Virus record (IMG/VR): IMGVR_UViG_3300030085_004215
Coordinates: 32,001 to 96,000 of that record
DNA length: 64,000 bases
Source of the DNA: a virus
Strand: one strand, 5' to 3'
Shown here piece after piece: positions 8,336-64,000 of this stretch. The notes beneath the pieces were generated by a model. The model had not been told where the DNA came from. It ran no database searches and saw only the letters and a program-made list of their open reading frames with translations. How positions within the stretch are numbered: position 1 is the first letter of the stretch; each line of letters starts with the position of its first letter. A program made the position numbers and the translations under genes.

Positions 8336-8345
8336 TTTTTAGGAG

Positions 8346-8418
8346 TGGAGCTGACAGGGTTCGAACCTGCGACCCCCACAGTGCAAGTGTGGTGCTCTCC
8401 CAACTGAGCTACAGCCCC
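8346..8418 (-). tRNA. tRNA-Ala(TGC)
   Basis: Full cloverleaf GGGGCTG...CCACA-CTTGCAC-TGTGG...GGTTCGAACC...CAGCTCCA; G3:U70 Ala identity pair; CCA not encoded. Confidence 0.97.
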
Positions 8419-11320: not shown

Positions 11321-11878
11321 TTATTTTGTATAATCGTAAATAATAAAATCTTTTTCAAATAGATTATAAACAAGTTCATATGTTTTATCTGTATAATACT
11401 TTTGATATGGTTCATGTCTCGATAAATTCCACATTGGTAATTGATATTTATCTATATTAATCTTTTCACAAAACAAATCAAAACTATCTTGTAGGGATTC
11501 GTAACGACCTATCAAATCAATTTTTTCATTTAAATATTCAGATTGTAGTTTTGTTAAATTAGAATCTAACCCTTCATATAACCAAGTGGTAAAATCCATT
11601 TTCTGTGCAGTTGCTTTAAATTGATATTGTGGAGATTTGTGAAAGTGATAATAACTAACCATCCTATCATATGGATTTCTTACTACTGCAAATTTAAAAA
11701 ACGAATTCCAAACACTATCACGGCAATATCGTTTTATTACATTGCAACTATCGTGAGGATATCTTTTTCGGACTACCTTTTTATCATATCCTTGTGTATC
11801 AAAAGAATTACGAATACTCGTTCCAGCATTTTTTGGTATATGAATAAATATAAATTTATACTCGTGATTTATAAACAT
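11321..11878 (-). CDS. Sulfotransferase (family 2-like)
   Basis: FIHIPKNAGTSI (5'-PSB) and VRNPYDRMVSYY (3'-PB). Confidence 0.88.
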   Translation of the reverse strand: MFINHEYKFIFIHIPKNAGTSIRNSFDTQGYDKKVVRKRYPHDSCNVIKRYCRDSVWNSFFKFAVVRNPYDRMVSYYHFHKSPQYQFKATAQKMDFTTWLYEGLDSNLTKLQSEYLNEKIDLIGRYESLQDSFDLFCEKINIDKYQLPMWNLSRHEPYQKYYTDKTYELVYNLFEKDFIIYDYTK

Positions 11879-15550: not shown

Positions 15551-17074
15551 TTATAAAACTTTAATTCCATATCGTTTTTCAAATCCAATACCATCATTAT
15601 GGGTATTCACAATTGGCATACCCTTTATATTAAGTGAGGTATTGAGTAACATCGGGCAACCTGTCTTCTTGTAAAATTCATTAATGAGATTATAAAAGTT
15701 CGGGTTATCATCCTTACTAACAGTCTGTACTCGTGATGTGTTATCAACATGACATATAGCAGGATATAAATCAGGTTGTTTACATTTAGCAACGAACTGC
15801 ATATACTGAGACTTCCTAACTGGCATATCGAATATTTCGTGTGCGTGTTCCTCAAGTACTGCAGGTGCAAAAGGTCTGAACTCCTGTCGTTTCTTAATCT
15901 TATTAACTCTATCTTTGATATCATCACCACGCGGGTCTGCCAACAAAGAACGATTACCTAACGCTCGAGGACCAAACTCCGCTCGACCACTCGCCACACC
16001 AACGATATCACCTTTAAGAAGCTTTTTCAAAGTTTGCTTAATTGGATATTCTCCTTGTATATCATAACCCAAGAAAGTATTCTTCCAATCGAGATGTTTA
16101 CCCAATACATATGCAGCACATCCCAACGATGAACCACCATCACCGGGATTTGGAATAATCCATATATTGGGATATCTTCTCGCCAATAAGGAATTCGCTA
16201 CACAATTTAATGCAACTCCACCACCATATACAAAGTTATCTATATTGGGTAACATGGATTGTGCTAACTCAAATACTTTAAGTATCTCTTCTTCACATAT
16301 TGCTTGTACATTTGCTGCTATATCAAACTTCCACTTATCACTTCCATCATCTGGATAACACTTAGGATTCCAATCCATACATCCTCGGTGTAGGTTTTGT
16401 TTAAACTCTACAATACCCTCATTGAAGAATTCATCGCGTATCTCTTTTTGTAATGTGGTATCTAATGTTCCCCATCCTGCCATACCCATAAGTATGTATT
16501 CATCTTCTTGAGGTTTTAAACCCAACCTCTGTGTCATAGCACTATACCATAACCCTAATGAATGTGGATATTGACGATTCCACAACTTTTTAAATTGGGT
16601 TTCCCCATTGTGGTTTGTTCTGATATGCCATATAGTGGTGGTATCCCATTCTCCTATTGCATCAATCATCACACCAATACTCTCTCTATAGGGAGAGGTA
16701 AAATATGCTGCACTCGCGTGTGATAAATGATGAGATATGTAATGGTTGGGTTTAAGATTAAATTGTTTTAAATACTTACTTGGTAGGTTCTGAAGAGTAA
16801 AGGTATCTTGAGTTTGACCTGCCCATAGTTGTCGTGATTTCTTTAACCAAGGCTGTTCAAACCACACGACTGTATCCCAATCCCCATAACGGCGTAATTG
16901 AGATAGTAGTTGTGGATTTAATAACTCATCATTTTTTATTTCTGAGTTTCGTTCACTATGGCCTGCAAACCTTATATCGGTATCGTGTATAAGTGCAGCA
17001 GTAGCATCATGATTTAAACCAGTTAATCCAAGTATTCTTTTGTTTTGATTGGGTTTGGTTATGTAACATTTCAT
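15551..17074 (-). CDS. Carbamoyltransferase (NodU/CmcH/TobZ family)
   Basis: HDATAA, HHLSHA, DAIGEW, GGVALNC, EFGPRALGNRS, FRPFAP, HVDNTSRVQTV, LNTSLN. Confidence 0.93.
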   Translation of the reverse strand: MKCYITKPNQNKRILGLTGLNHDATAALIHDTDIRFAGHSERNSEIKNDELLNPQLLSQLRRYGDWDTVVWFEQPWLKKSRQLWAGQTQDTFTLQNLPSKYLKQFNLKPNHYISHHLSHASAAYFTSPYRESIGVMIDAIGEWDTTTIWHIRTNHNGETQFKKLWNRQYPHSLGLWYSAMTQRLGLKPQEDEYILMGMAGWGTLDTTLQKEIRDEFFNEGIVEFKQNLHRGCMDWNPKCYPDDGSDKWKFDIAANVQAICEEEILKVFELAQSMLPNIDNFVYGGGVALNCVANSLLARRYPNIWIIPNPGDGGSSLGCAAYVLGKHLDWKNTFLGYDIQGEYPIKQTLKKLLKGDIVGVASGRAEFGPRALGNRSLLADPRGDDIKDRVNKIKKRQEFRPFAPAVLEEHAHEIFDMPVRKSQYMQFVAKCKQPDLYPAICHVDNTSRVQTVSKDDNPNFYNLINEFYKKTGCPMLLNTSLNIKGMPIVNTHNDGIGFEKRYGIKVL

Positions 17075-36428: not shown

Positions 36429-37182
36429 TTTCTGCCTCTATTTTTATTGATACAAAATATTTTTTTCCTTTATCATAAAAAAAGGTTCCACCCTTATTAC
36501 CAAAGGTTCTACCTCTAATTCTATTTAATAAATCTCTTGCAGTATACTTTTCATCCAATTCTAAACAAGAATGTTTATCCAATTCTTTTTTCAAATGAAA
36601 ATTACCTTTACTATTATCAACAACTTTGGTTGTATAATCAGATGTGATTATCCTTTCAAAATTTGATTTAAATAAATTTATAGTGTTTATTAAGTTTGCT
36701 TGGTAAACACTACCACCTGTATCTGTCCAATTATACCTTATTTCATTTTGAAATAAAATCTCACCCTCATCAATATTTTCATTAATAAAATGTATTGTAG
36801 TTCCCGCAGCAGTTCCATCCACAAGTGACCAGTAGTAAGGATGCATTCCACGATTCCACGGTATCATACTTGGGTGTAAATTAATAAAACCAATTTTTAC
36901 AGATTTAATACTTTCTTTTTTAACAATGGTAGGAAACCATAATAGTAATACTAAATCAACATTATTATCTTTATTTAATTGTCTGAATTCGTCTGAATTT
37001 ACACTTAATGTACCTTTAAAATTTACACCCCTGTCAATAGAAAGTGCTTTTATATCTTCCTCATAAGGTAACTCTGCAGTTACAACATATGATATATTAA
37101 AATCAAGCCAATCTTGGGCATCAATAACAAAATCTAATAATTCGTATCCAACTTCATTTGCTGCACAAATTCCGATGTTCAT
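36418..37182 (-). CDS. Sugar N-formyltransferase
   Basis: INLHPS..PWNRG, GTTIHF..IDEG. Confidence 0.85.
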   Translation of the reverse strand: MNIGICAANEVGYELLDFVIDAQDWLDFNISYVVTAELPYEEDIKALSIDRGVNFKGTLSVNSDEFRQLNKDNNVDLVLLLWFPTIVKKESIKSVKIGFINLHPSMIPWNRGMHPYYWSLVDGTAAGTTIHFINENIDEGEILFQNEIRYNWTDTGGSVYQANLINTINLFKSNFERIITSDYTTKVVDNSKGNFHLKKELDKHSCLELDEKYTARDLLNRIRGRTFGNKGGTFFYDKGKKYFVSIKIEAENEW

Positions 37183-37874
37183 TTTGAATCGTGCTCACTA
37201 TCACGGCCGTCGAACTGCAGGTCATTATTGAACTCTGCCTTCACTGCAGTTTGTTTATCTTCTTCACTAGCGATTGACCAGTACATTACACCTAAAGTCT
37301 TTCTATCCATACCCTCTGTTATGGTAGGGAATCCGTGCCAGGATGTATCAGAACACTTAAACACATTTAAACAATTAAATTTATATGGTAGTGTGGTGTG
37401 TTCTTTACCATTATGTAACCTCAAATCAAATGATGAATCGTATTCTTCTGATACACATAATATTGCAGAGTATTCTCGTTTCCAATCAGTATTTTTTCCA
37501 TGAATGGTGGCATCTCTATGCATTCCAAGATACCCACCCTCACCATATCTATTTGGTGTAATCATCATACCACCACCATAATGTGAAGTATCAGGAAAAG
37601 CATTCTCAGTTAAACCAAATACCTCGTTAGGGTCAAAGTGTGTTGCGATATAATCTAACACTAATAGTGCAGGTGGTGGTACATTTTCTCTACCTAACTT
37701 TGAACAATATTGTACCTGTCCATCACCTTCACCATAACGAACCCAATCATCTACTTGATTAAAACTTTCTGCTGCTGCTAAAACTAAACTACGAGATGGA
37801 ATAAAATCCTCAATCGATACTGCAGGATATGGTGTATCAATTCGTTTTAAGTTTTTTGAATTCATCATAATCAT
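37179..37874 (-). CDS. 2OG-Fe(II) oxygenase
   Basis: GGYLGMHRD, SWHG, RKT. Confidence 0.78.
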   Translation of the reverse strand: MIMMNSKNLKRIDTPYPAVSIEDFIPSRSLVLAAAESFNQVDDWVRYGEGDGQVQYCSKLGRENVPPPALLVLDYIATHFDPNEVFGLTENAFPDTSHYGGGMMITPNRYGEGGYLGMHRDATIHGKNTDWKREYSAILCVSEEYDSSFDLRLHNGKEHTTLPYKFNCLNVFKCSDTSWHGFPTITEGMDRKTLGVMYWSIASEEDKQTAVKAEFNNDLQFDGRDSEHDSK

Positions 37875-53415: not shown

Positions 53416-53808
53416 TTATTTACCCCACTTTCCATTCTTTACTATTGTAGCCATTATACCATAATTACTAATATCAAGATACGCATCTTCCATTGGTTCC
53501 CCCTCAACTGCGGATTGTCTATTATTCATCAGTAGAGTTTTTAACCTCTGAATCTTATCGTTCATTCTAAACCACAAACCAGTAAGTGATAGATGTACTT
53601 CTTCATCAGTTTGTAATTGTGTTCCTACAGAAATATTACCTGGGCCATAATCATGTTGTTTTTTCAAAAACAATTCATATTGTTCTTGTTGCAATCGTTT
53701 GAACTCTTGTGTCATTTCAGGCCATTCCTTTTCCATTTGTTCTACGATTGGATGTTGTTTGGCAACAACTTCTTTTCTTGTAGTATCTTTTATATATGTT
53801 TCACTCAT
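53416..53808 (-). CDS. DUF1599-like nucleotide-modification-associated protein
   Basis: KKQHDYG, RMNDKIQRL, DAYLDISNYG. Confidence 0.75.
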   Translation of the reverse strand: MSETYIKDTTRKEVVAKQHPIVEQMEKEWPEMTQEFKRLQQEQYELFLKKQHDYGPGNISVGTQLQTDEEVHLSLTGLWFRMNDKIQRLKTLLMNNRQSAVEGEPMEDAYLDISNYGIMATIVKNGKWGK

Positions 53809-56249: not shown

Positions 56250-56859
56250 ATACTGAAATACCTATTGGTTTTGAATTTTCTGGATTAAAATGATATTGTT
56301 TTTCTAAATGGTAATCAACTACAGGACAGAGTGATACAGAAACTATTAAATCAATATAACTTTTAAAGGTTATGTAATCTCCCTTTTTACAATCAGATAC
56401 TCTTCCCTCTAATCTATATCCATCTGCTGCAGGTTTTACCTTTTCAAATAAATTTATAGTATTATCATTTAGATGTTCAACATCTAATTCAAAATCTTTG
56501 ATACTATTAAGAAAATTTGTTTTACAACTTCCACGACCTTGGTTTTCCTCATCATCACAATATCCTTGTACTAAATGGTGAAAACACCCATCTTTTGATG
56601 ATTCGTATTCAGTTTCATCTATACACTTTGCAATGATTCTTCGTACTTTATAATCCGACCAGAGAGTTGAACCCTTCGTAATTTTTCTATCATTCATCCA
56701 TAGAGTTTGATGCATACTTAGGAATTCTTTTTTTGGATTATCTTTACTCCAAATAGCAACATCTAATATTTGAGGACCTTCTAATAATTCAAATTTAAAA
56801 AAATGGTCTTTAGGTACTATGAATGCAAACCCATCTCTTTCAACTTTATACTTGGTCAT
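56242..56859 (-). CDS. DUF1989 / urea-carboxylase-associated family protein
   Basis: EGPQILD, LWS, HHL..GYC, SC..NF, INLF, GDYI, SLCP. Confidence 0.8.
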   Translation of the reverse strand: MTKYKVERDGFAFIVPKDHFFKFELLEGPQILDVAIWSKDNPKKEFLSMHQTLWMNDRKITKGSTLWSDYKVRRIIAKCIDETEYESSKDGCFHHLVQGYCDDEENQGRGSCKTNFLNSIKDFELDVEHLNDNTINLFEKVKPAADGYRLEGRVSDCKKGDYITFKSYIDLIVSVSLCPVVDYHLEKQYHFNPENSKPIGISVYE

Positions 56860-57757
56860 ATACTACTTGTTTTTCCTTATAAACTAAAACCAAACCACTT
56901 GAAATCATTACAAGTCCAAGTATCTGCCATAATGATGGTGTCATTGATAAGAAAAAATAACCGAGTGTCACTCCAAATATAGGTGTTCCTAACTCAACCA
57001 TACCTGTATTGGTAGCTCCAATATTTTTAACTGCTATCCAATAACAGAAGTAAGCTATAAAACTTGCCACAACTGAAATATAAGTGATTGCAAGTAACCC
57101 ATTAAATGTTACCTCTGAAAGTGTTGTCATAGGTGATTGGAATAATGAAACATAAACAAAGACTTGTAAGAAGTCATAAAATACAATCGTAAGTGGTTTG
57201 TATTTTTTCATAATACCTTGACCAACCACGAGATATCCAACCCAAGTCAAACAAGCGGCCACATCTAATAATATACCCTTAGCATTTAAACCTTCGGTTG
57301 AGAATGATGGTATCAGTTCAATAGCAAACATACAACCAAGAGTTCCCAATCCTAAAGCAATCTTTCTATTATTACTAAATTTTTCTCCATAGTAAAATAT
57401 AGAAATCAAACATAGTATAAATGGATACATATAGAATATTGCGTAAATAACAGGTAAGTTCGGGTCAAGTAATTCCCAAGCAAACCAATACACCAATAAA
57501 TGTACTGCCAATATTACACCATTAATCAAGAATTGTTTTCTATCTTCCTTTTCAACATAAAACAAATTTTCACCTGTTGTCTGTTTTTTCCATAACATTA
57601 CCCCACCAAACAATAGTGTAGCGATTAAAAACCTAACCGATAAAACCGATACAGGCCCTGCACCTTCAGCAAATATAAAACTACCAGTAACTTCAAGGGT
57701 TGACCAAGCAAATACTGCAGTTGCTATTGCTAAAAATCCTTTTAAGAATTTATTCAT
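56846..57757 (-). CDS. EamA/DMT-family transporter
   Basis: About ten TM helices in two EamA repeats (VRFLIA, YMYP, GEK, PIFG). Confidence 0.88.
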   Translation of the reverse strand: MNKFLKGFLAIATAVFAWSTLEVTGSFIFAEGAGPVSVLSVRFLIATLLFGGVMLWKKQTTGENLFYVEKEDRKQFLINGVILAVHLLVYWFAWELLDPNLPVIYAIFYMYPFILCLISIFYYGEKFSNNRKIALGLGTLGCMFAIELIPSFSTEGLNAKGILLDVAACLTWVGYLVVGQGIMKKYKPLTIVFYDFLQVFVYVSLFQSPMTTLSEVTFNGLLAITYISVVASFIAYFCYWIAVKNIGATNTGMVELGTPIFGVTLGYFFLSMTPSLWQILGLVMISSGLVLVYKEKQVVYDQV

Positions 57758-58565
57758 TTTTATTTCCTATATTTAAGTTAAAACCATAATACAACTTAAC
57801 CCTTAAATCACCTTCTCCACTAAATTCAGCGGAAACAAATTGGTTGGGTTCTCCGTACTGATAAACAAGACCATAAAGTGCCTGTGTTTCATCTTCAGTT
57901 CTTTCAAAACCTGCTAATGCTGATAGACCATATTTACCACTCTTGATAATTGCTCTACCCCATTGATAATCTTCTCTAAATTCTGTAACATAATCAATAT
58001 ATTTACTATATCCACTTACATCAAGAACTTGTCTATCTTGATTATCAACTGATACACCGATAAAATGAACATCACCTACCTCATAACTTAATCTTGCAGT
58101 AGTTAGTACATCATATCCGTTTTCGATATCATTACCATAATAGGTTTCTAAAAACCACTTACCAACTCCACCATAGACACTAACACCATCTCCGAAATAC
58201 AAGAGTCCAACATCATTAGGTGTTGGTGTTGCGTAAGTAAACCTATCACCTCTTGTTAAATCTAAGTATGGTACATTAGAACCAAATGGAATTGCTTGTC
58301 GTCCTAAACCAACTGTGAACTTATCACTATATGGTTTATAGAACAGTTCCTCAACATAAACGGATTTATCACTCCACGGTGCTTCAATCCAAATCGATGC
58401 CATCCATTTTGAATTATCATCTTTTATGAATGACCAGAGTGCTGGTTTGTCAAAGGATACCGAATCACCGACTGTGGTATATCCAACTACACTATTTTTT
58501 ATTATTGCAGATTGAGTTGATACAAATGAAACCATCATTATCAACATAACCATTATTTTCTTCAT
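57750..58565 (-). CDS. Secreted beta-rich, porin-like outer-membrane protein
   Basis: Signal peptide; YVEELFY, VGLGRQAIPFG, alternating aromatic beta-strands. Confidence 0.55.
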   Translation of the reverse strand: MKKIMVMLIMMVSFVSTQSAIIKNSVVGYTTVGDSVSFDKPALWSFIKDDNSKWMASIWIEAPWSDKSVYVEELFYKPYSDKFTVGLGRQAIPFGSNVPYLDLTRGDRFTYATPTPNDVGLLYFGDGVSVYGGVGKWFLETYYGNDIENGYDVLTTARLSYEVGDVHFIGVSVDNQDRQVLDVSGYSKYIDYVTEFREDYQWGRAIIKSGKYGLSALAGFERTEDETQALYGLVYQYGEPNQFVSAEFSGEGDLRVKLYYGFNLNIGNKNE

Positions 58566-58581
58566 ATATAACCTCTTATTA

Positions 58582-59112
58582 TTATTTTCTAATTGCTTCC
58601 ATATTAATCGAAATACGAAAATCTTTTCTCTCTATATAAGTAGTGGTATGATTTACGAAATTAGGAAAAAAAATTAAATTATTTTTCTTTGGTAGATATT
58701 TGTAAACCTTTTCTCTTTCTTCAAATAAAATATGTCCACCTGTCATATCATCTGGCACTTCTAAATAGTAAACACCGACCATATTTGATGTCATTGAATG
58801 GTTATGCCAGTTGATTGGACAATAATCTTCATTACATACCATCAAATAATACATACTCTCATCCCTACCTATAGTGTAATCTTTACCATCAAATTTTTTT
58901 AATAAATCAACGAACTTTTTATTTAATGTATTAAATACACCCACCTTAGTATTAATTGGCATATTATAACCAAATTGTAAGAGGTTTCTGTTTGCATTAA
59001 AGTGTTCAATACTATGTGTTATTGATTCATTTATAGTATTATCATTCTTTAAAAAGTTTTCTACACAATATATGGGTAAATTTTTAAATATTCTATTGTA
59101 TTTCATATCCAC
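58582..59112 (-). CDS. 2OG-Fe(II) oxygenase-like protein
   Basis: WHNH, GVYYL, GGHILF, IFFP...H, RISI. Confidence 0.8.
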   Translation of the reverse strand: MDMKYNRIFKNLPIYCVENFLKNDNTINESITHSIEHFNANRNLLQFGYNMPINTKVGVFNTLNKKFVDLLKKFDGKDYTIGRDESMYYLMVCNEDYCPINWHNHSMTSNMVGVYYLEVPDDMTGGHILFEEREKVYKYLPKKNNLIFFPNFVNHTTTYIERKDFRISINMEAIRK

Positions 59113-59533
59113 ATTTTTTAAGTAAATTTATACTATTAATATTCCAATCATCAACCTCAGACCAAAGATAATCTAATTTCCTTAACTTACCTGCAGTAAT
59201 ACCTGAACTTACTAAATTAAAACCATAACCTTTATTTCTAAAATCCTTATGTACATATAAGTTTAAATATTCTTTAGTGTGATAATTTAACCAAGACCAT
59301 CCTCTTACTTTATCATCTATATTTAAAACGGATAAACACCATCCATCAGATAATCTCTCGTATGCATCAGATATACTCCACATACCATCCCAATTTAATT
59401 CTCGTTGAAATTCTTCAATTGCAATAGATAATTTATCTTCAGTATCCTTTGGAATTAGTTGATTCCAAAATTGTACTTCCTTGCATGTATTATAAAACTG
59501 ATAGTTATCGAGATAACGATGAAGTTTAATCAC
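59093..59533 (-). CDS. GNAT acetyltransferase
   Basis: LYVHKDFRNKGYG, N..S..L..KCGY. Confidence 0.82.
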   Translation of the reverse strand: MIKLHRYLDNYQFYNTCKEVQFWNQLIPKDTEDKLSIAIEEFQRELNWDGMWSISDAYERLSDGWCLSVLNIDDKVRGWSWLNYHTKEYLNLYVHKDFRNKGYGFNLVSSGITAGKLRKLDYLWSEVDDWNINSINLLKKCGYEIQ

Positions 59534-60189
59534 TTAAAATAACTCTCTAATCGTTCTTCTTTTAGTTCTTGTTCTGTTTTCTCAAAATCTTTTCTTTTCA
59601 TACCAAGATTTGGTCGTTTATCATACTTATATTCTTTATACTTTCCGTCCTGTCTAACATAATGTATAAATAATTGAACACATTCAGTACCTTTATATGG
59701 TAATCTCCAATGGTTCATTTGTGTACCTTCATAAAAACATACATCACCATATGAAAGAGAAATGGATTTTGGTTTAGGTTTAGAATCTACTACTTGTTGA
59801 GCATGACCCTCTTCTCCATATTTATCAAAATCATATTTACACATTAATATTGGCCATTTCTCATCATATCTGATTGGTATAGTAGCCGAAAATTCACATG
59901 AAGGTCTATCGGTATGTGGTTTTAAAAAATCAAGATTATTGTAAATTCTAAGAAATGAATAACAAGGAAAAAGTTTTTCACCAACCACCTTTTCTGCAAG
60001 TGGTGTTAGAGTTTTCATCAGAGTATCGTTTAAAGTATCACCATATAGTACAAGTGTACCTTGAACCTGGTTATCATCAAATAGAAGTTCATTATTTTCT
60101 GATTTTAATGTGTAGTATTCATACATCAAATCCAATACATCTTTATGTATGTGATTCTTTACAACCTTATAACCACTTTTATTAAACAT
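59530..60189 (-). CDS. 2OG-Fe(II) oxygenase-like protein
   Basis: HTDRPSCEFS, HWR, QLFIHYV. Confidence 0.78.
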   Translation of the reverse strand: MFNKSGYKVVKNHIHKDVLDLMYEYYTLKSENNELLFDDNQVQGTLVLYGDTLNDTLMKTLTPLAEKVVGEKLFPCYSFLRIYNNLDFLKPHTDRPSCEFSATIPIRYDEKWPILMCKYDFDKYGEEGHAQQVVDSKPKPKSISLSYGDVCFYEGTQMNHWRLPYKGTECVQLFIHYVRQDGKYKEYKYDKRPNLGMKRKDFEKTEQELKEERLESYFK

Positions 60190-60687
60190 TTACTCCCACT
60201 CAGGTATATTATATCCAGCTATTGATTTAGTTGTTGGTATTAAATAACTCTCTACCAAAACCTCATCATAAAAATCTCTATATCGTATGTAGTGTCCTGC
60301 ATCTACTGAACCCGAAACTGCATCATACCATTGATGTTCTGAATCTTCTATACGAAATCTAACAACCTCACCCTGCAAACTTTCAGGTACAAGAGATGAA
60401 CTCCAAAACTTAGTTTTAAGAGATTCATCAGTTTGTAGTGATTGTGAAAAATAATCCCAACTTGCAGTTGCCTCATTTATATCATCAAATGTATGATGAA
60501 ATCCTAATACAGATACAACTGGTTTTTGGTCAAAAATATCTACAATTGTAAATGGATAGGATGAAGAATCATAACCAGTGTAGTCATTTTCATCTACACT
60601 AATATATCCAGTCTCTATACCACCACTTACTTCTGGTTCTGCAACATTGAGAGAAGCCTCTCCGTGAATTAAAAATGTTTTTGCCAT
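60190..60687 (-). CDS. Hypothetical acidic protein
   Basis: ORF directly downstream of the 906-aa gene. Confidence 0.6.
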   Translation of the reverse strand: MAKTFLIHGEASLNVAEPEVSGGIETGYISVDENDYTGYDSSSYPFTIVDIFDQKPVVSVLGFHHTFDDINEATASWDYFSQSLQTDESLKTKFWSSSLVPESLQGEVVRFRIEDSEHQWYDAVSGSVDAGHYIRYRDFYDEVLVESYLIPTTKSIAGYNIPEWE

Positions 60688-60693
60688 AATATA

Positions 60694-63414
60694 TTAAGGA
60701 GCGAGTGGCCCTCCGTTGAATTGTGGTCCACCCTCATGGTATGCACCATTATTAGGATGTCCTTGATGGACATATGTTGATTGGTCTCTTGAATCTGCAG
60801 AATCAAAAGATTTTTGCCATATTAGAATTTTACAAACATTATACGCACCATCTGATGAACTTGGATTTGGATATGAGTTACCACCAAATGCAAATCTATT
60901 ACTTGGACTTCTTGGATTAGTTCCAGGTGTCGGAAAATTAAAAGAATTTTGCATATTAGCTGGAGGTGTTTCATAATTCTTGTAAACGGTGTAGTAAGGA
61001 CTTGATTGGTCTGTTACCCAATAAGTAAATTTATGTTTACTAAAATACTGAGGAGATACTTTTGGGTTAGATGGATATAATCTGAACGCAGTATTACCTG
61101 CTGGTTGATTCCATACTGCAGAATATGGACTTGGTGCCCATTGTGAACCATTGTACCAATAATATCTTGCACCTGGCCCGTTTGGATAAACAGCTATATC
61201 AAAATTTGCACCTGTTGCCATACCCATCAATCTTCTTCTGGTTGGAGAATTTGGTTGATAAGCTTGATTTGGTGGCCATGAAGTACCTGCCTGATATGGA
61301 GAAGCAGTAAAACAAAGCATTACTGTCATTGGATATTGAGATGAAAACATAACTTGTGCATGGTATAAATTACTTGGCTGTCTCTGTAATCGTGCTCCTT
61401 TATAAGATGTGTTTAAAGGTACAGTTGAAAACTCTGGATTAGGATACTCACCTTGTATTGGTGCCAATGATGCTTTAGGTCTTGGTGTTGAGCTTAGTGG
61501 TGATGGTGCTGGATGAAAAGTCAAATCTGCATTTAATCTTGAATCCATAGCATACCAAGTTGGACCTGCTGCAGGGAATGATTGTGGATTACCCGCATCG
61601 TAATTTCCTATAACTTGATTCTCATCCAATAAATCAAATTGTGAAGGCCCATTATGAACTTTTAATGCATTCATAAAATAATTTTCTGTAGGTTTTATAT
61701 CATAGATATCCCAATGAGATTTTTTACCAACAACTTCTTTCATACTCACAATTTTACATGGAACCATTTCTCCATAAATAGCAGTTGTTACTTTCATATC
61801 TGGTCGTTTATAAGTTAAGCAAGTCATACCAGGTCGTAACCTCATAACTTCCATTCGCTTTTTAGAATAGGTTAGACTAGGGTCATAAGATGCCCAACCA
61901 AATGTAGGTTTAATTTCATCTCTAATTCCTCTTTCAACTCCAGCCTCATTATGTGTACCAAAAGGTTCTAAACCATCTGTTCTATCCATACGAATATCAT
62001 AATCCATCGAATTTATCACCTTGAGTGGTTTTTCAAATAAAAATTCACTTGTAAAATATGTACCACCAAGTTCAAATGTTATCTCAACTACTCGTTCTGG
62101 CATTTCTGCATCAGCAGCTTTTGCCATTGTTGCTTCAACTATTTCTTTTTCAGTTGAACTTAAAACAATATCTTCTTTAAATGGATTGGTTATAATACTA
62201 TCCAATCCTTGAACAAAATTTTCATGTTTGGCAGATATTTGAAACCCATTCAGATGAAGTACATTCTGAGGATTTGTAACTGTTTTTACTCTTACCCTTT
62301 CGGTAATTACTTCTAATTTTTTTATTTCATAATCCTTACCATCCTTTAACAATACATCACCAACTTCTAATAAATGTACAGGTACAAATCTACCACGATT
62401 ATTTTCTTTTATCAGTACTGAAGCGGATGATAAAAATTTATGAGTATCATTTATTTTAATATAATGAAAGTGGTGGGGAAATTGTTGTTCAACCAAAGTA
62501 TCATTTTCAGATACTTCATCAGTATAGAATAAGTTTGCAGATGATACACGATGTAGTTCTCGTTGATTATTTCTTTCTTCATAATCCCAAAGTTGTGTAT
62601 ATAAATTTGGAGTTAAATTAAAGTAATCCTTACGAAACATCATTTTATAATGTTTAATTTCTACATTAAAACCTGTAACATGGTCTTTTTCCATATCTAT
62701 AAAGTGTTCAACATAATCATATTTCGATAGTCGTGTAAGAAATTTTCTCTTATCAGTAAATTTTTCTATATGAACTCCATGTTTTCTATCGATATTTCTT
62801 TTCTTAAAAACAAACCATCTATTAGGTTCATATATATCATCGTAAAAACCAGCTGCTCTATCTGGTTTCTCAGTATAGGGTGCAGTGATTGAAGTACCTG
62901 CAAAATCATTTAGATACTTTTTAAATGCAATTTTATCTGCTGCAAATTTATCAATAGTACAATTCTTATCCCATGCAATTCTTACTATTAAATCTTTTCT
63001 TTTATTATATTTAAAATCAAATATATCTGTTTCAGGATCAACTGTTTTTAATCTTAGGTTTACCTTATTTTTATCGGTAATTGTTTGAAATTCCCTATAC
63101 CAATTACCTTGTTTAATCTTACCCTCTGCTTTTTCATTTATCAATAATATTATATTTTCATATTTCCATTTTTTTACAACATCCATTATAGGTTTAAAAT
63201 CAAACCACTCTACTATATCATTATCAAATGCAGAATTTGTATTAATTTCAGTTACATAACCTGTGTAATCATCAGGTAAGATATCATAGCAATACAAAAG
63301 TATTTCATTTTTTCGCAGATAGGTGGTGTCCATTAGAAACTCATCTATGTCGTCTGTCTGGCTATTAATGATATATTTGTATATAAACTTATCGAAAACT
63401 AAATCTTTTTTCAT
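60694..63414 (-). CDS. Multidomain protein: permuted ATP-grasp-like + two Hint-like segments + Pro-rich LamG-like C-terminal domain
   Basis: YDILPD...TEINTN; FVFKK...GVHI; YVEHFI; ENYFMNALKVHN; YDAGNPQSFP..GPTWY. Confidence 0.65.
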   Translation of the reverse strand: MKKDLVFDKFIYKYIINSQTDDIDEFLMDTTYLRKNEILLYCYDILPDDYTGYVTEINTNSAFDNDIVEWFDFKPIMDVVKKWKYENIILLINEKAEGKIKQGNWYREFQTITDKNKVNLRLKTVDPETDIFDFKYNKRKDLIVRIAWDKNCTIDKFAADKIAFKKYLNDFAGTSITAPYTEKPDRAAGFYDDIYEPNRWFVFKKRNIDRKHGVHIEKFTDKRKFLTRLSKYDYVEHFIDMEKDHVTGFNVEIKHYKMMFRKDYFNLTPNLYTQLWDYEERNNQRELHRVSSANLFYTDEVSENDTLVEQQFPHHFHYIKINDTHKFLSSASVLIKENNRGRFVPVHLLEVGDVLLKDGKDYEIKKLEVITERVRVKTVTNPQNVLHLNGFQISAKHENFVQGLDSIITNPFKEDIVLSSTEKEIVEATMAKAADAEMPERVVEITFELGGTYFTSEFLFEKPLKVINSMDYDIRMDRTDGLEPFGTHNEAGVERGIRDEIKPTFGWASYDPSLTYSKKRMEVMRLRPGMTCLTYKRPDMKVTTAIYGEMVPCKIVSMKEVVGKKSHWDIYDIKPTENYFMNALKVHNGPSQFDLLDENQVIGNYDAGNPQSFPAAGPTWYAMDSRLNADLTFHPAPSPLSSTPRPKASLAPIQGEYPNPEFSTVPLNTSYKGARLQRQPSNLYHAQVMFSSQYPMTVMLCFTASPYQAGTSWPPNQAYQPNSPTRRRLMGMATGANFDIAVYPNGPGARYYWYNGSQWAPSPYSAVWNQPAGNTAFRLYPSNPKVSPQYFSKHKFTYWVTDQSSPYYTVYKNYETPPANMQNSFNFPTPGTNPRSPSNRFAFGGNSYPNPSSSDGAYNVCKILIWQKSFDSADSRDQSTYVHQGHPNNGAYHEGGPQFNGGPLAP

Positions 63415-63447
63415 AACTATAAATATATATTAGTTAAAAAAAATATA

Positions 63448-64000
63448 CTATTTAAATGGAGGACCATGAAACCAAGTAACTATAGCATGTCGTGTACCTT
63501 TTGTTACTGGTGTTACTGCATGTTGTAAATATGATGGAAAAAATATTATAGTGCCAGGTGTTTTTGGATAATGTAAAATTGGGTTACCACTATCATCGGC
63601 GTGTTGCAAGTGACCAAATAACAGTTCACCACCCTCATATTCCGATGGGTCATTTACAAGAATGGTGCTTGATAACTTTCTAAAACAAGTTGGTATATCA
63701 CCACCAGCATCAACATGAAAATCATACTTACCTCGTTCTGAGGATTCATATCTCAGTAGGATAGATGGTTCCATTAGGTTATCTAATTCAAATCCATAAA
63801 ATTGCTCGTTGGCTTCATGAGTTAATTGTTCTAATTTATTGTAATACCACTCTGTAAACTCAGCAAAGGGGATTGCATTTTCGTATGCAACTCGTGGTGT
63901 ATCATCACCACGATAATTACCCATATCAGCATCACCCATTGTTAATGCAGGTCTATCTTCTGTATCGGTACGATTCATTAGTTCTTGAAGTCTTTTCAGT
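63448..64000 (-). CDS. PKHD/prolyl-4-hydroxylase-type 2OG-Fe(II) oxygenase (frame open to window edge)
   Basis: FHVD, RKLS, YEGGEL, FPSYLQHAVTPVTKGTR, WFHGP. Confidence 0.9.
   Translation of the reverse strand, partial: LKRLQELMNRTDTEDRPALTMGDADMGNYRGDDTPRVAYENAIPFAEFTEWYYNKLEQLTHEANEQFYGFELDNLMEPSILLRYESSERGKYDFHVDAGGDIPTCFRKLSSTILVNDPSEYEGGELLFGHLQHADDSGNPILHYPKTPGTIIFFPSYLQHAVTPVTKGTRHAIVTWFHGPPFK

Follow-up and report, generated by a model that had tools for sequence, protein, structure and literature searches.

A 906-residue protein encoded on the minus strand of a virus sequence, IMG/VR record IMGVR_UViG_3300030085_004215, joins a ligase of the ATP-grasp fold, two intein-like Hint modules and a LamG/ConA-like jelly-roll domain, in that order. 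The record is a 120,405-bp virus contig, and the stretch analysed here (the window) consists of its bases 32001-96000, 64,000 nucleotides in all; positions below are those of the window. We place this protein, P0001, as a derived member of a widespread phage superfamily of ligase-Hint fusions. Its second Hint module (Hint2) appears to have lost the residues for thioester formation and kept those for asparagine cyclisation, and the reading we rank first, at somewhat better than even, is a single autocleavage between Asn588 and Gly589. The features of the gene are as follows.

60694..63414, minus strand: whole open reading frame (ORF) P0001, 906 amino acids plus stop; intact frame, with 17 homologues at 34-53% identity
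62536..63414, minus strand: predicted circularly permuted ATP-grasp carboxylate-amine ligase of the type of glutathione synthetase (GSS), glutathionylspermidine synthetase (GspS) and YgiC, residues 1-293 (AlphaFold2 (AF2), Foldseek and VIA)
63238..63249, minus strand: Glu56-Ile-Asn58-Thr59, candidate Mg2+-binding E-x-N motif; invariant in 48 sequences, role by analogy
62803..62805, minus strand: Lys204, candidate ATP-phosphate-binding lysine; invariant in 48 sequences, in strand 200-204 of the model
62221..62535, minus strand: Hint1, degenerate, residues 294-398 (hhalign against 207 canonical modules)
61651..62220, minus strand: Hint2, predicted to derive from a bacterial intein-like (BIL) domain, residues 399-588 (hhalign against 207 canonical modules)
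61645..61656, minus strand: His587-Asn588 / Gly589-Pro590, predicted autocleavage junction
60697..61650, minus strand: predicted LamG/ConA-like jelly-roll, residues 589-906 (AF2, VIA and Foldseek)

The junction is strictly conserved. The homologues, mostly 889-923 residues long, came from a word-indexed search of 5.8 billion proteins, and an exhaustive phmmer scan of 1.84 billion representatives returned 18 proteins at E<=1e-3, the query included. His587, Asn588, Gly589 and Pro590 are identical in 17/17 aligned members that cover the junction, the 18th being truncated, and a separate fetch of 20 viral loci showed the same four residues in 19, the remaining locus stopping before them. Asp569 and His567 are likewise identical in every member covering them (17-18 of 18). 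The initial annotation had placed the end of a Hint block at His587-Asn588 (61651-61656), with Gly next, and had proposed conservation of the pair as a check; the position is confirmed and the pair is conserved throughout. Domain identities were compared in the 16 full-length members, with the fragments P0015 and P0017 left out:

Hint2 (399-588): mean pairwise identity 68.8%; within it, 74.2% for residues 439-588, where 35% of positions are invariant
Ligase (1-293): mean pairwise identity 47.8%
Hint1 (294-398): mean pairwise identity 39.7%
LamG (589-906): mean pairwise identity 34.4%; fast-evolving

Hint2 is therefore no passive linker, since it is the most conserved part of the 906-residue protein.

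Both modules were compared by hhalign with a profile built from 207 canonical modules cut from fetched proteins of the superfamily. This comparison supersedes an earlier one made with single sequences and query-only columns, in which Hint2 reached just 73.6%. Against the profile, Hint2 matches over residues 405-592 (98.3%, E 1.2e-14, 126 columns), from template position 18 of 151 to the terminal His-Asn, and Hint1 matches over residues 285-404 (93.2% probability, E 2.9e-7, 119 columns); Hint1 also aligns with the first Hint of a distant relative, P0030, at 95.3%. These alignments support the reading of residues 294-398 and 399-588 as two Hint modules. The second, degenerate Hint without His-Asn that had been suspected upstream of the first is real, at about 62242-62463, and the block-A Cys or Ser reported as missing from both modules is indeed absent. 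Asn294 lies in the Cys1 nucleophile column of Hint1 in the profile alignment (18/18 members). Asn399, also invariant in 18/18, would occupy the nucleophile position of Hint2 by our by-eye placement, in which Asn399-Phe-Val-x-Gly403 lines up with the canonical Cys-Phe-Val-Ala-Gly start and the first hairpin would then be deleted. Hint1 has no terminal His-Asn, and in the sub-clade of the query it is without a stretch of ~25 residues, part of the block A/B hairpin, that more distant members keep. In Hint2, Leu459 and Lys462 (both 18/18) take the places of the block-B Thr and His, the block-F Asp is kept as Asp569 (18/18), and the position aligned to the block-F His holds Glu in 14/18 members, Asn in two, His in one and Asp in one. 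Hint2 also carries a clade-specific insert of ~35 residues. The residues of a type-A BIL are thus present at its C-terminus only, as His587-Asn588 with Gly589 at +1 (both 17/17).

These residues have defined roles in related domains. As described in parts of PMC4031507, the C-terminal Asn of an intein is the nucleophile of the cyclisation step, with help from the penultimate His and from residues 4 and 13 of block F, mostly Asp and His respectively; the same parts describe BILs without a +1 nucleophile, and type-A BILs with a terminal His-Asn that mainly cleave, at their C-terminal side by Asn cyclisation. In Hint2 this set is invariant, the block-F His excepted. The protein also holds an internal control: its sister module Hint1 lost His-Asn over the same evolutionary span over which Hint2 kept it. 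A thioester at the N-terminal side of Hint2 would be impossible because Cys1 and the block-B Thr and His are lost. We rank cleavage first because the thioester step is excluded by sequence, the Asn-cyclisation set is kept, and the decayed Hint1 has lost that set. Hint2 would cyclise Asn588 and so cut the chain between Asn588 and Gly589, its one reaction, and the products would be a 588-residue ligase-Hint fragment with a succinimide end and a 318-residue LamG domain that begins with Gly.

Other identities for the gene were considered and set aside. An annotation artefact or pseudogene was rejected, as the frame is intact and the homologues are full-length. An intein was rejected as well, given Gly at +1 and flanks that are unrelated domains (ligase and LamG) rather than the halves of one protein, and so was a Hedgehog-type Hog protein, as Cys1 is missing. 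Searches with the whole 906-residue protein returned only an AXH match at E 0.08 from Pfam, no match from PHROGs, and only noise (E>0.4) from phmmer and an A1 profile search against the PDB.

The wider superfamily shows from what such a protein was derived. P0030, a protein of 917 residues from the exhaustive scan, has only the N-terminal ligase domain in common with the query (28% identity; hhalign 98.4%), and in P0030 that domain is followed by two textbook Hints. The second of these has Cys as its first residue and the Thr-x-x-His of block B, and its final His-Asn is followed by Lys; it passes the Pfam cut-offs for AXH (69.7 bits against a cut-off of 33, residues 439-544), Hom_end_hint and PT-HINT. 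A search with residues 1-620 of P0030 reached at least 271 protein clusters at E<=1e-3. Among the 120 matches listed, nearly all bear Hint-family Pfam matches, with PF07591 passing its cut-off on canonical relatives, and some superfamily proteins are named 'intein/homing endonuclease' by the Joint Genome Institute (JGI). Viral contigs, the largest of 213 kb, hold at least 294 stretches that encode such proteins, by a scan made with a distant branch.

We derived the common plan of the superfamily from a junction survey of 152 fetched proteins and from a module hidden Markov model (HMM) run on 15 representative proteins. The ligase occupies residues ~2-290 and is followed by a first Hint, often without Cys, and then by one to three canonical Cys...His-Asn Hints, set head to tail with spacers of 1-8 residues. 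In most of these proteins the stop codon lies 1-2 residues past the last His-Asn. The initial annotation had expected homologues with a constant N-terminal part and variable C-termini after His-Asn; this expectation is borne out only in part, as most superfamily proteins stop there and a domain after His-Asn is the exception. Of the 120 fetched superfamily proteins that are 480 residues or longer, 100 match a ligase-domain HMM (E 1e-26 to 1e-103) and 20 do not, a fraction biased upward because the search query itself contained the ligase domain. Taken together, these surveys indicate that the ligase-Hint fusion is ancient and the LamG domain a late addition. A coupling between ligase and Hint cannot therefore depend on LamG. 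Against this plan, Hint1 is best matched to the superfamily's first, Cys-less Hint, decayed further, and Hint2 to its first canonical Hint, from which the thioester residues were lost and in which the Asn-cyclisation residues were kept.

The module profile of the superfamily also matches solved structures. The Clostridium thermocellum BIL domain 2lwy aligns over its full length at E 1.7e-13; next come the AXH structures of Ataxin-1 and HBP1 (E 8.3e-13 to 3.4e-11), and then classical inteins. By these profile scores the eukaryotic AXH module is a clear sequence relative of the BIL-type Hints described here. Among the papers searched, none was found that joins 'AXH domain' with 'Hint domain'.

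Architectures differ even between close relatives. P0153, a protein of 753 residues (L041:4899-7157, plus strand), has the ligase and three Hints and ends in His-Asn-Ser-Pro-stop. It sits in a similar island of GNAT and oxygenase genes, and the clamp loader of its phage is 88% identical to that of the query phage; the locus thus seems to swap architectures. A stand-alone Hint ORF of 166 residues (L035:9724-10221, plus strand) was seen ~2.4 kb downstream of another superfamily member (PT-HINT E 1.8e-12, AXH 2.8e-12). One further match, in 20 stretches between query residues 350-409 and a metagenomic protein of 2395 residues (P0025), was left unused, as it probably sums weak repeat matches; P0025 is fibre-like, with ~20 near-identical repeats of ~105 residues and a Peptidase_S74 intramolecular-chaperone end.

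The N-terminal domain was modelled with AF2 from an alignment of 48 sequences (residues 1-300; predicted local distance difference test score (pLDDT) 87.0, predicted template modelling score (pTM) 0.85). Foldseek gave 33 PDB matches at E<=1e-3 with this model (best 4.2e-6), all of those listed being members of the permuted class, namely E. coli YjfC and YgiC, glutathionylspermidine synthetase, trypanothione synthetase, fungal Cp1B and the yeast, human and plant (homo)glutathione synthetases. VIA-align, run against 48,161 representative chains, put the same GSS/GspS/YgiC/Cp1B group at the top (Z 10.2-14.0, 225-271 residues aligned, model range 2-293). The permuted class aligns from model residue 2-6, whereas ordinary ATP-grasps (LysX/ArgX, RimK, Ddl, PurT/PurK, TTLLs and synapsin) align in VIA only over ~85-293, with Z 5-6.7, as expected for a circular permutation. 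Eukaryotic glutathione synthetase has the classic permuted ATP-grasp fold. The model comparisons thus support residues 1-293 as a circularly permuted ATP-grasp ligase of the glutathione-synthetase/glutathionylspermidine-synthetase type, and ATP-grasp motifs in permuted order, which the initial annotation had read from the letters, are borne out by the fold.

Across the 48 sequences, with identity down to ~10%, the sole invariant columns are D44, E56, N58, T59 and K204; E56, N58 and T59 are also kept in 17/17 members of the clade. E56-x-N58 precedes K204 in the sequence, the permuted order. E56, N58 and K204 may be equivalent to catalytic residues of human GSS, a candidate assignment made by motif analogy, and the conserved motif residues suggest that the ligase is active. 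To our knowledge, all characterised members of the permuted class form an amide bond between an amine and a carboxylate, the latter often that of a peptide C-terminus. For Cp1B, the part of PMC12568646 concerned with structural comparison names as closest homologues homoglutathione synthetase, which joins gamma-glutamylcysteine with beta-alanine, and the 'peptidylpolyamine synthetases YgiC and YjfC'.

The AF2 model of the C-terminal domain (residues 589-906, alignment of 21 sequences) is all-beta and of moderate confidence (pLDDT 71.5, pTM 0.79). In VIA it matches 98 chains at Z>=8, led by the lectin domain of a trypanosome (trans-)sialidase (2a75; Z 16.2, 206 residues aligned, root-mean-square deviation 2.8) and by the tailspike of cyanopodophage Pan3 (9vyh; Z 15.9, 228 of 269 residues aligned); the lectin-like sub-domain of clostridial neurotoxins, the type IV pilus PilC module, carbohydrate-binding modules and pentraxins come next. 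Foldseek found the same families among 213 PDB matches at E<=1e-3. In BFVD, 311 matches at E<=1e-3 are led by 'ConA-like lectin/glucanase' and 'LamG-like jellyroll' entries of uncultured tailed phages and Synechococcus phages. An atlas feature search pointed to phage clusters bearing Laminin_G_3 (0.92-0.93), which we treat as a lead only, and Pfam gave no match to the domain even at E<=10. These comparisons (Z 14-16 in VIA) support a jelly-roll of the LamG/ConA type, a fold that the binding domains of phage tailspikes and fibres have. They agree with the initial annotation, which had called the last 318 residues LamG-like and rich in Pro, Ser and Asn; these three residues make up 32% of residues 589-906 vs 11-15% of the other domains. 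That the Pro-rich domain might be a hydroxylation substrate of nearby oxygenases is pure speculation. A complex prediction for the ligase and LamG domains gave no answer (score 0.00, mark 0.32) and is evidence neither way.

Several observations weigh against the favoured reading of the protein. Hint2 has lost features that would assist cleavage: in block A the first hairpin has diverged or been deleted, Leu459 and Lys462 stand in place of the block-B Thr and His, and in 14/18 members Glu takes the aligned block-F His position. Conservation across some 150 residues of Hint2, 74% identical and with invariant runs remote from the junction, exceeds what cleavage needs, and Hint2 may have another or an additional role. 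The catalytic residues of the ligase are assigned by motif analogy, and no Pfam ATP-grasp model is significant, the best being ATP-grasp_3 at E 0.15 in 2/18 members. Finally, no stand-alone LamG homologue was found at 174-557 residues, the lengths searched, so that there is no independent sign of the domain working as a separate protein. Much of this would suit a protein that is never cut. Both Hints would then be dead and exapted as a structural or binding unit, the protein would work intact, and His-Asn-Gly-Pro would be kept for folding; the ligase would sit next to a LamG domain that binds a glycan or receptor, and might, for instance, amidate carboxylates of a glycan, of some part of the cell envelope or of a virion protein. 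Loss of the nucleophile, of the block-B pair and of part of block A fits such an intact protein, as does the lack of a stand-alone LamG relative. So does the spread of Hint2 conservation over 150 residues, with an invariant run at 457-467 and the ~35-residue insert far from the junction, a pattern that suits a binding surface. AXH, the clear sequence relative of these Hints, is a non-catalytic module and in eukaryotes an example of such exaptation, and the phage has a large sugar-nucleotide/glycosyltransferase cluster that includes a gene of the UDP-glucose/GDP-mannose dehydrogenase family. Yet the cyclisation residues Asp569, His587 and Asn588 are invariant, while the truly decayed Hint1 has lost them, and the small +1 residue and the Pro after it are invariant too. 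Inteins can cleave at their C-terminal side without the N-terminal nucleophile, as in Cys1 mutants, which also counts against a protein that stays whole. We regard the uncleaved protein as less probable than autocleavage at Asn588.

Other readings give the ligase a part in the reaction. The initial annotation had the fused ligase attach the freed, Gly-initiated domain to a partner: the enzyme would activate a carboxylate of that partner and join it to the alpha-amine of Gly589, placing LamG covalently on a virion or host partner. Amines, glycine among them, are acceptors of the ligase class, as the GSS and homoglutathione synthetase chemistry outlined in PMC12568646 illustrates; for type-A BILs, a passage of PMC4031507 proposes that the free amino group of the C-terminal fragment attacks an activated acyl group, of which an acyl-phosphate would be a chemical analogue in place of the BIL thioester. 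Gly589 is, moreover, invariant. We found no support for the proposal itself, and it is weakened by the age of the fusion, which long predates LamG: most relatives stop 1-2 residues past His-Asn, and the conserved ligase-Hint coupling is therefore not about a released C-terminal domain. No partner gene was identified, and the substrates of characterised enzymes of the class are small molecules or short peptides. We consider this course of events very improbable. A fusion without LamG would be explained if the ligase instead took the C-terminus made by its own Hint and joined it to an amine, for instance a polyamine; that end would be Asn588 once the succinimide has opened or, where the Hints are canonical, the residue preceding Cys1. 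The Hint would then, speculatively, unmask the substrate of the ligase. The ancient fusion, in 100/120 fetched relatives, fits this, and so do YgiC/YjfC as peptide-spermidine ligases and GspS and GSS as enzymes acting on peptide C-terminal carboxylates, as reported in parts of PMC12568646. The idea is purely inferential, however, and a canonical Hint thioester could already transfer its acyl group without ATP, which would make the ligase redundant for that step; of all the readings we hold it the least probable. A broader version, which we judge unlikely, treats ligase and Hints as one self-processing conjugation device widespread in marine phages, in which the Hint would unmask a chain end and the ligase conjugate it with ATP. 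The ends would be the C-terminus in canonical arrays and Asn588 and Gly589 in the LamG offshoot, the targets an amine or carboxylate of a polyamine, glycan, virion or host protein, and the nearby 2-oxoglutarate (2OG) oxygenase, GNAT and SET genes would belong to the same protein-modification island.

The gene lies among accessory genes, of which the following were compared across 20 related loci.

63448..63978, minus strand: 2OG-Fe(II) oxygenase (PF13640), upstream neighbour; Pfam E 1.6e-12
60190..60687, minus strand: 165-residue ORF, downstream neighbour; no Pfam or PHROGs match, downstream in 14/20 related loci
59530-60189, minus strand: phrog_2954 protein, 16/20 related loci
59093-59533, minus strand: GNAT acetyltransferase, 16/20 related loci
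58582-59112, minus strand: second 2OG-Fe(II) oxygenase, 9/20 related loci
56846-57757 and 57750-58565, minus strand: EamA-type transporter and adjacent 271-residue ORF (related-locus comparison)

The PF13640 oxygenase lies directly upstream in 18 of the 20 loci, the other two being truncated there. Since all of them come from a single phage lineage, synteny by itself counts for little as evidence. Rates of change differ along the locus. The EamA-type transporter is 89-96% identical in eight of the ten related loci that have it and 63-69% in the other two, and the 271-residue ORF beside it, with a hydrophobic N-terminus, is 64-90% identical across related loci; for the gene of the 906-residue protein the figure is just 47-52% in most of the EamA-bearing loci. 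By this comparison it is evolving much faster than its neighbours.

Four to five genes of the 2OG-Fe(II) oxygenase type and the GNAT gene are packed tightly around the target, at 58582-63978 and just past the end of the window (L004:636-1118); elsewhere in the window a single further oxygenase was seen, at 37179-37874. Such oxygenases are common in accessory regions of marine phages. Around the distant branch we scanned 18 loci, taking up to three ORFs upstream and four downstream of each (123 ORFs, one overlapping ORF having been dropped beforehand). At least one 2OG-Fe(II) oxygenase was near in 12/18 by Pfam, which is a lead only, SET-domain genes were present in 4/18, and sugar-modification genes in many.

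The contig itself is ~66% complete (CheckV). Within the window, GC content is 28-35% and the minus strand holds almost all ORFs. Outside the window, the contig has a T4-like replication set (B-family DNA polymerase, clamp, clamp loader, UvsX, single-stranded DNA-binding protein, DnaB-like helicase and ribonucleotide reductase) and baseplate-wedge genes, and the window has ClpP, SET and MoxR genes. Together with the sugar cluster, this gene content identifies the source as a large marine tailed phage. No near relative was found among GenBank phages by tblastn and megablast with P0001, P0030 and the 9-kb region, which gave no match, and within the ~66% of the genome that the contig covers we found no paralogues of the LamG domain, of the Hint/AXH modules or of a P0133-type protein.

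Sugar genes fill positions 26499-51389 of the minus strand: DegT-type aminotransferases, an FdtA-like isomerase, an N-formyltransferase, a C-methyltransferase, epimerases/dehydratases, the UDP-glucose/GDP-mannose dehydrogenase-family gene and several glycosyltransferases, a cluster of the deoxy-amino-sugar type. Outside this cluster, the window also holds genes for a carbamoyltransferase (15551-17074) and a sulfotransferase (11321-11878). The combined product of the sugar genes appears to be a complex glycan. A DUF1599 'nucleotide modification associated domain 1' gene (53416-53808, minus strand) and a thymidylate-synthase-like gene on the contig (L003:1933-2616) hint at DNA base modification. 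A single tRNA-Ala gene (anticodon TGC) is present at 8345-8418 on the minus strand.

Each domain of the protein resembles something known. With the type-A BIL 2lwy it has in common the Hint fold, a C-terminal His-Asn and the lack of Cys, Ser or Thr at +1, and cleavage rather than splicing would be expected of both. Unlike that domain, the query modules have Asn for Cys or Ser and are without the block-B Thr and His, so that at most the C-terminal half-reaction would be left; BIL hosts are bacterial surface or secreted proteins, whereas the host here is a phage ligase fusion. Pretoxin-HINT modules, in the part of PMC3113570 that treats them, also sit directly before a C-terminal domain and are predicted to free it by autoproteolysis, but the query has LamG where they have a toxin, its N-terminus holds an enzyme in place of a trafficking or filamentous region, and its setting is a phage accessory-gene island. 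Hedgehog Hog proteins likewise have a functional N-terminal domain followed by a Hint that processes the precursor; Hedgehog uses a Cys thioester and has no terminal His-Asn, the opposite of the residue set found here.

The ligase agrees with the permuted ATP-grasps (GSS, GspS/trypanothione synthetase, YgiC/YjfC and Cp1B) in whole-domain fold and permutation, and its invariant Glu-x-Asn and Lys are candidate counterparts of their motifs. It differs from them in its 7-12% identity, its length (~290 vs 370-630 residues), its missing substrate-binding elaborations and its escape from curated sequence models; a Hint fusion was not found for this class in the literature searched. The C-terminal domain has the fold of phage LamG/ConA jelly-rolls such as the Pan3 tailspike 9vyh, with its best viral matches in cyanophages and uncultured tailed phages, but no detectable sequence similarity to them, and it follows a Hint junction rather than sitting on a fibre or spike shaft. 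No published ligase-Hint fusion or phage family of tandem Hints was found in the literature searched, subscription journals lying outside its coverage. Each domain is of a known kind, and their combination seems not to be in print.

For the study of Hint domains, the superfamily supplies natural head-to-tail BIL arrays, a direct sequence bridge from BIL Hints to the eukaryotic AXH module, and a naturally occurring Hint, predicted to be 'C-terminal-cleavage-only', that has Asn in place of the nucleophile. Protein engineers already rely heavily on cleavage and ligation by Hints, and these proteins might also be useful as tools. If the ligase and Hint chemistries are coupled, they would amount to a new way to covalent protein conjugates, uniting intein-type and ATP-grasp chemistry. 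For phage biology, the findings suggest that large marine phages have a protein-processing locus which is both conserved and fast-evolving.

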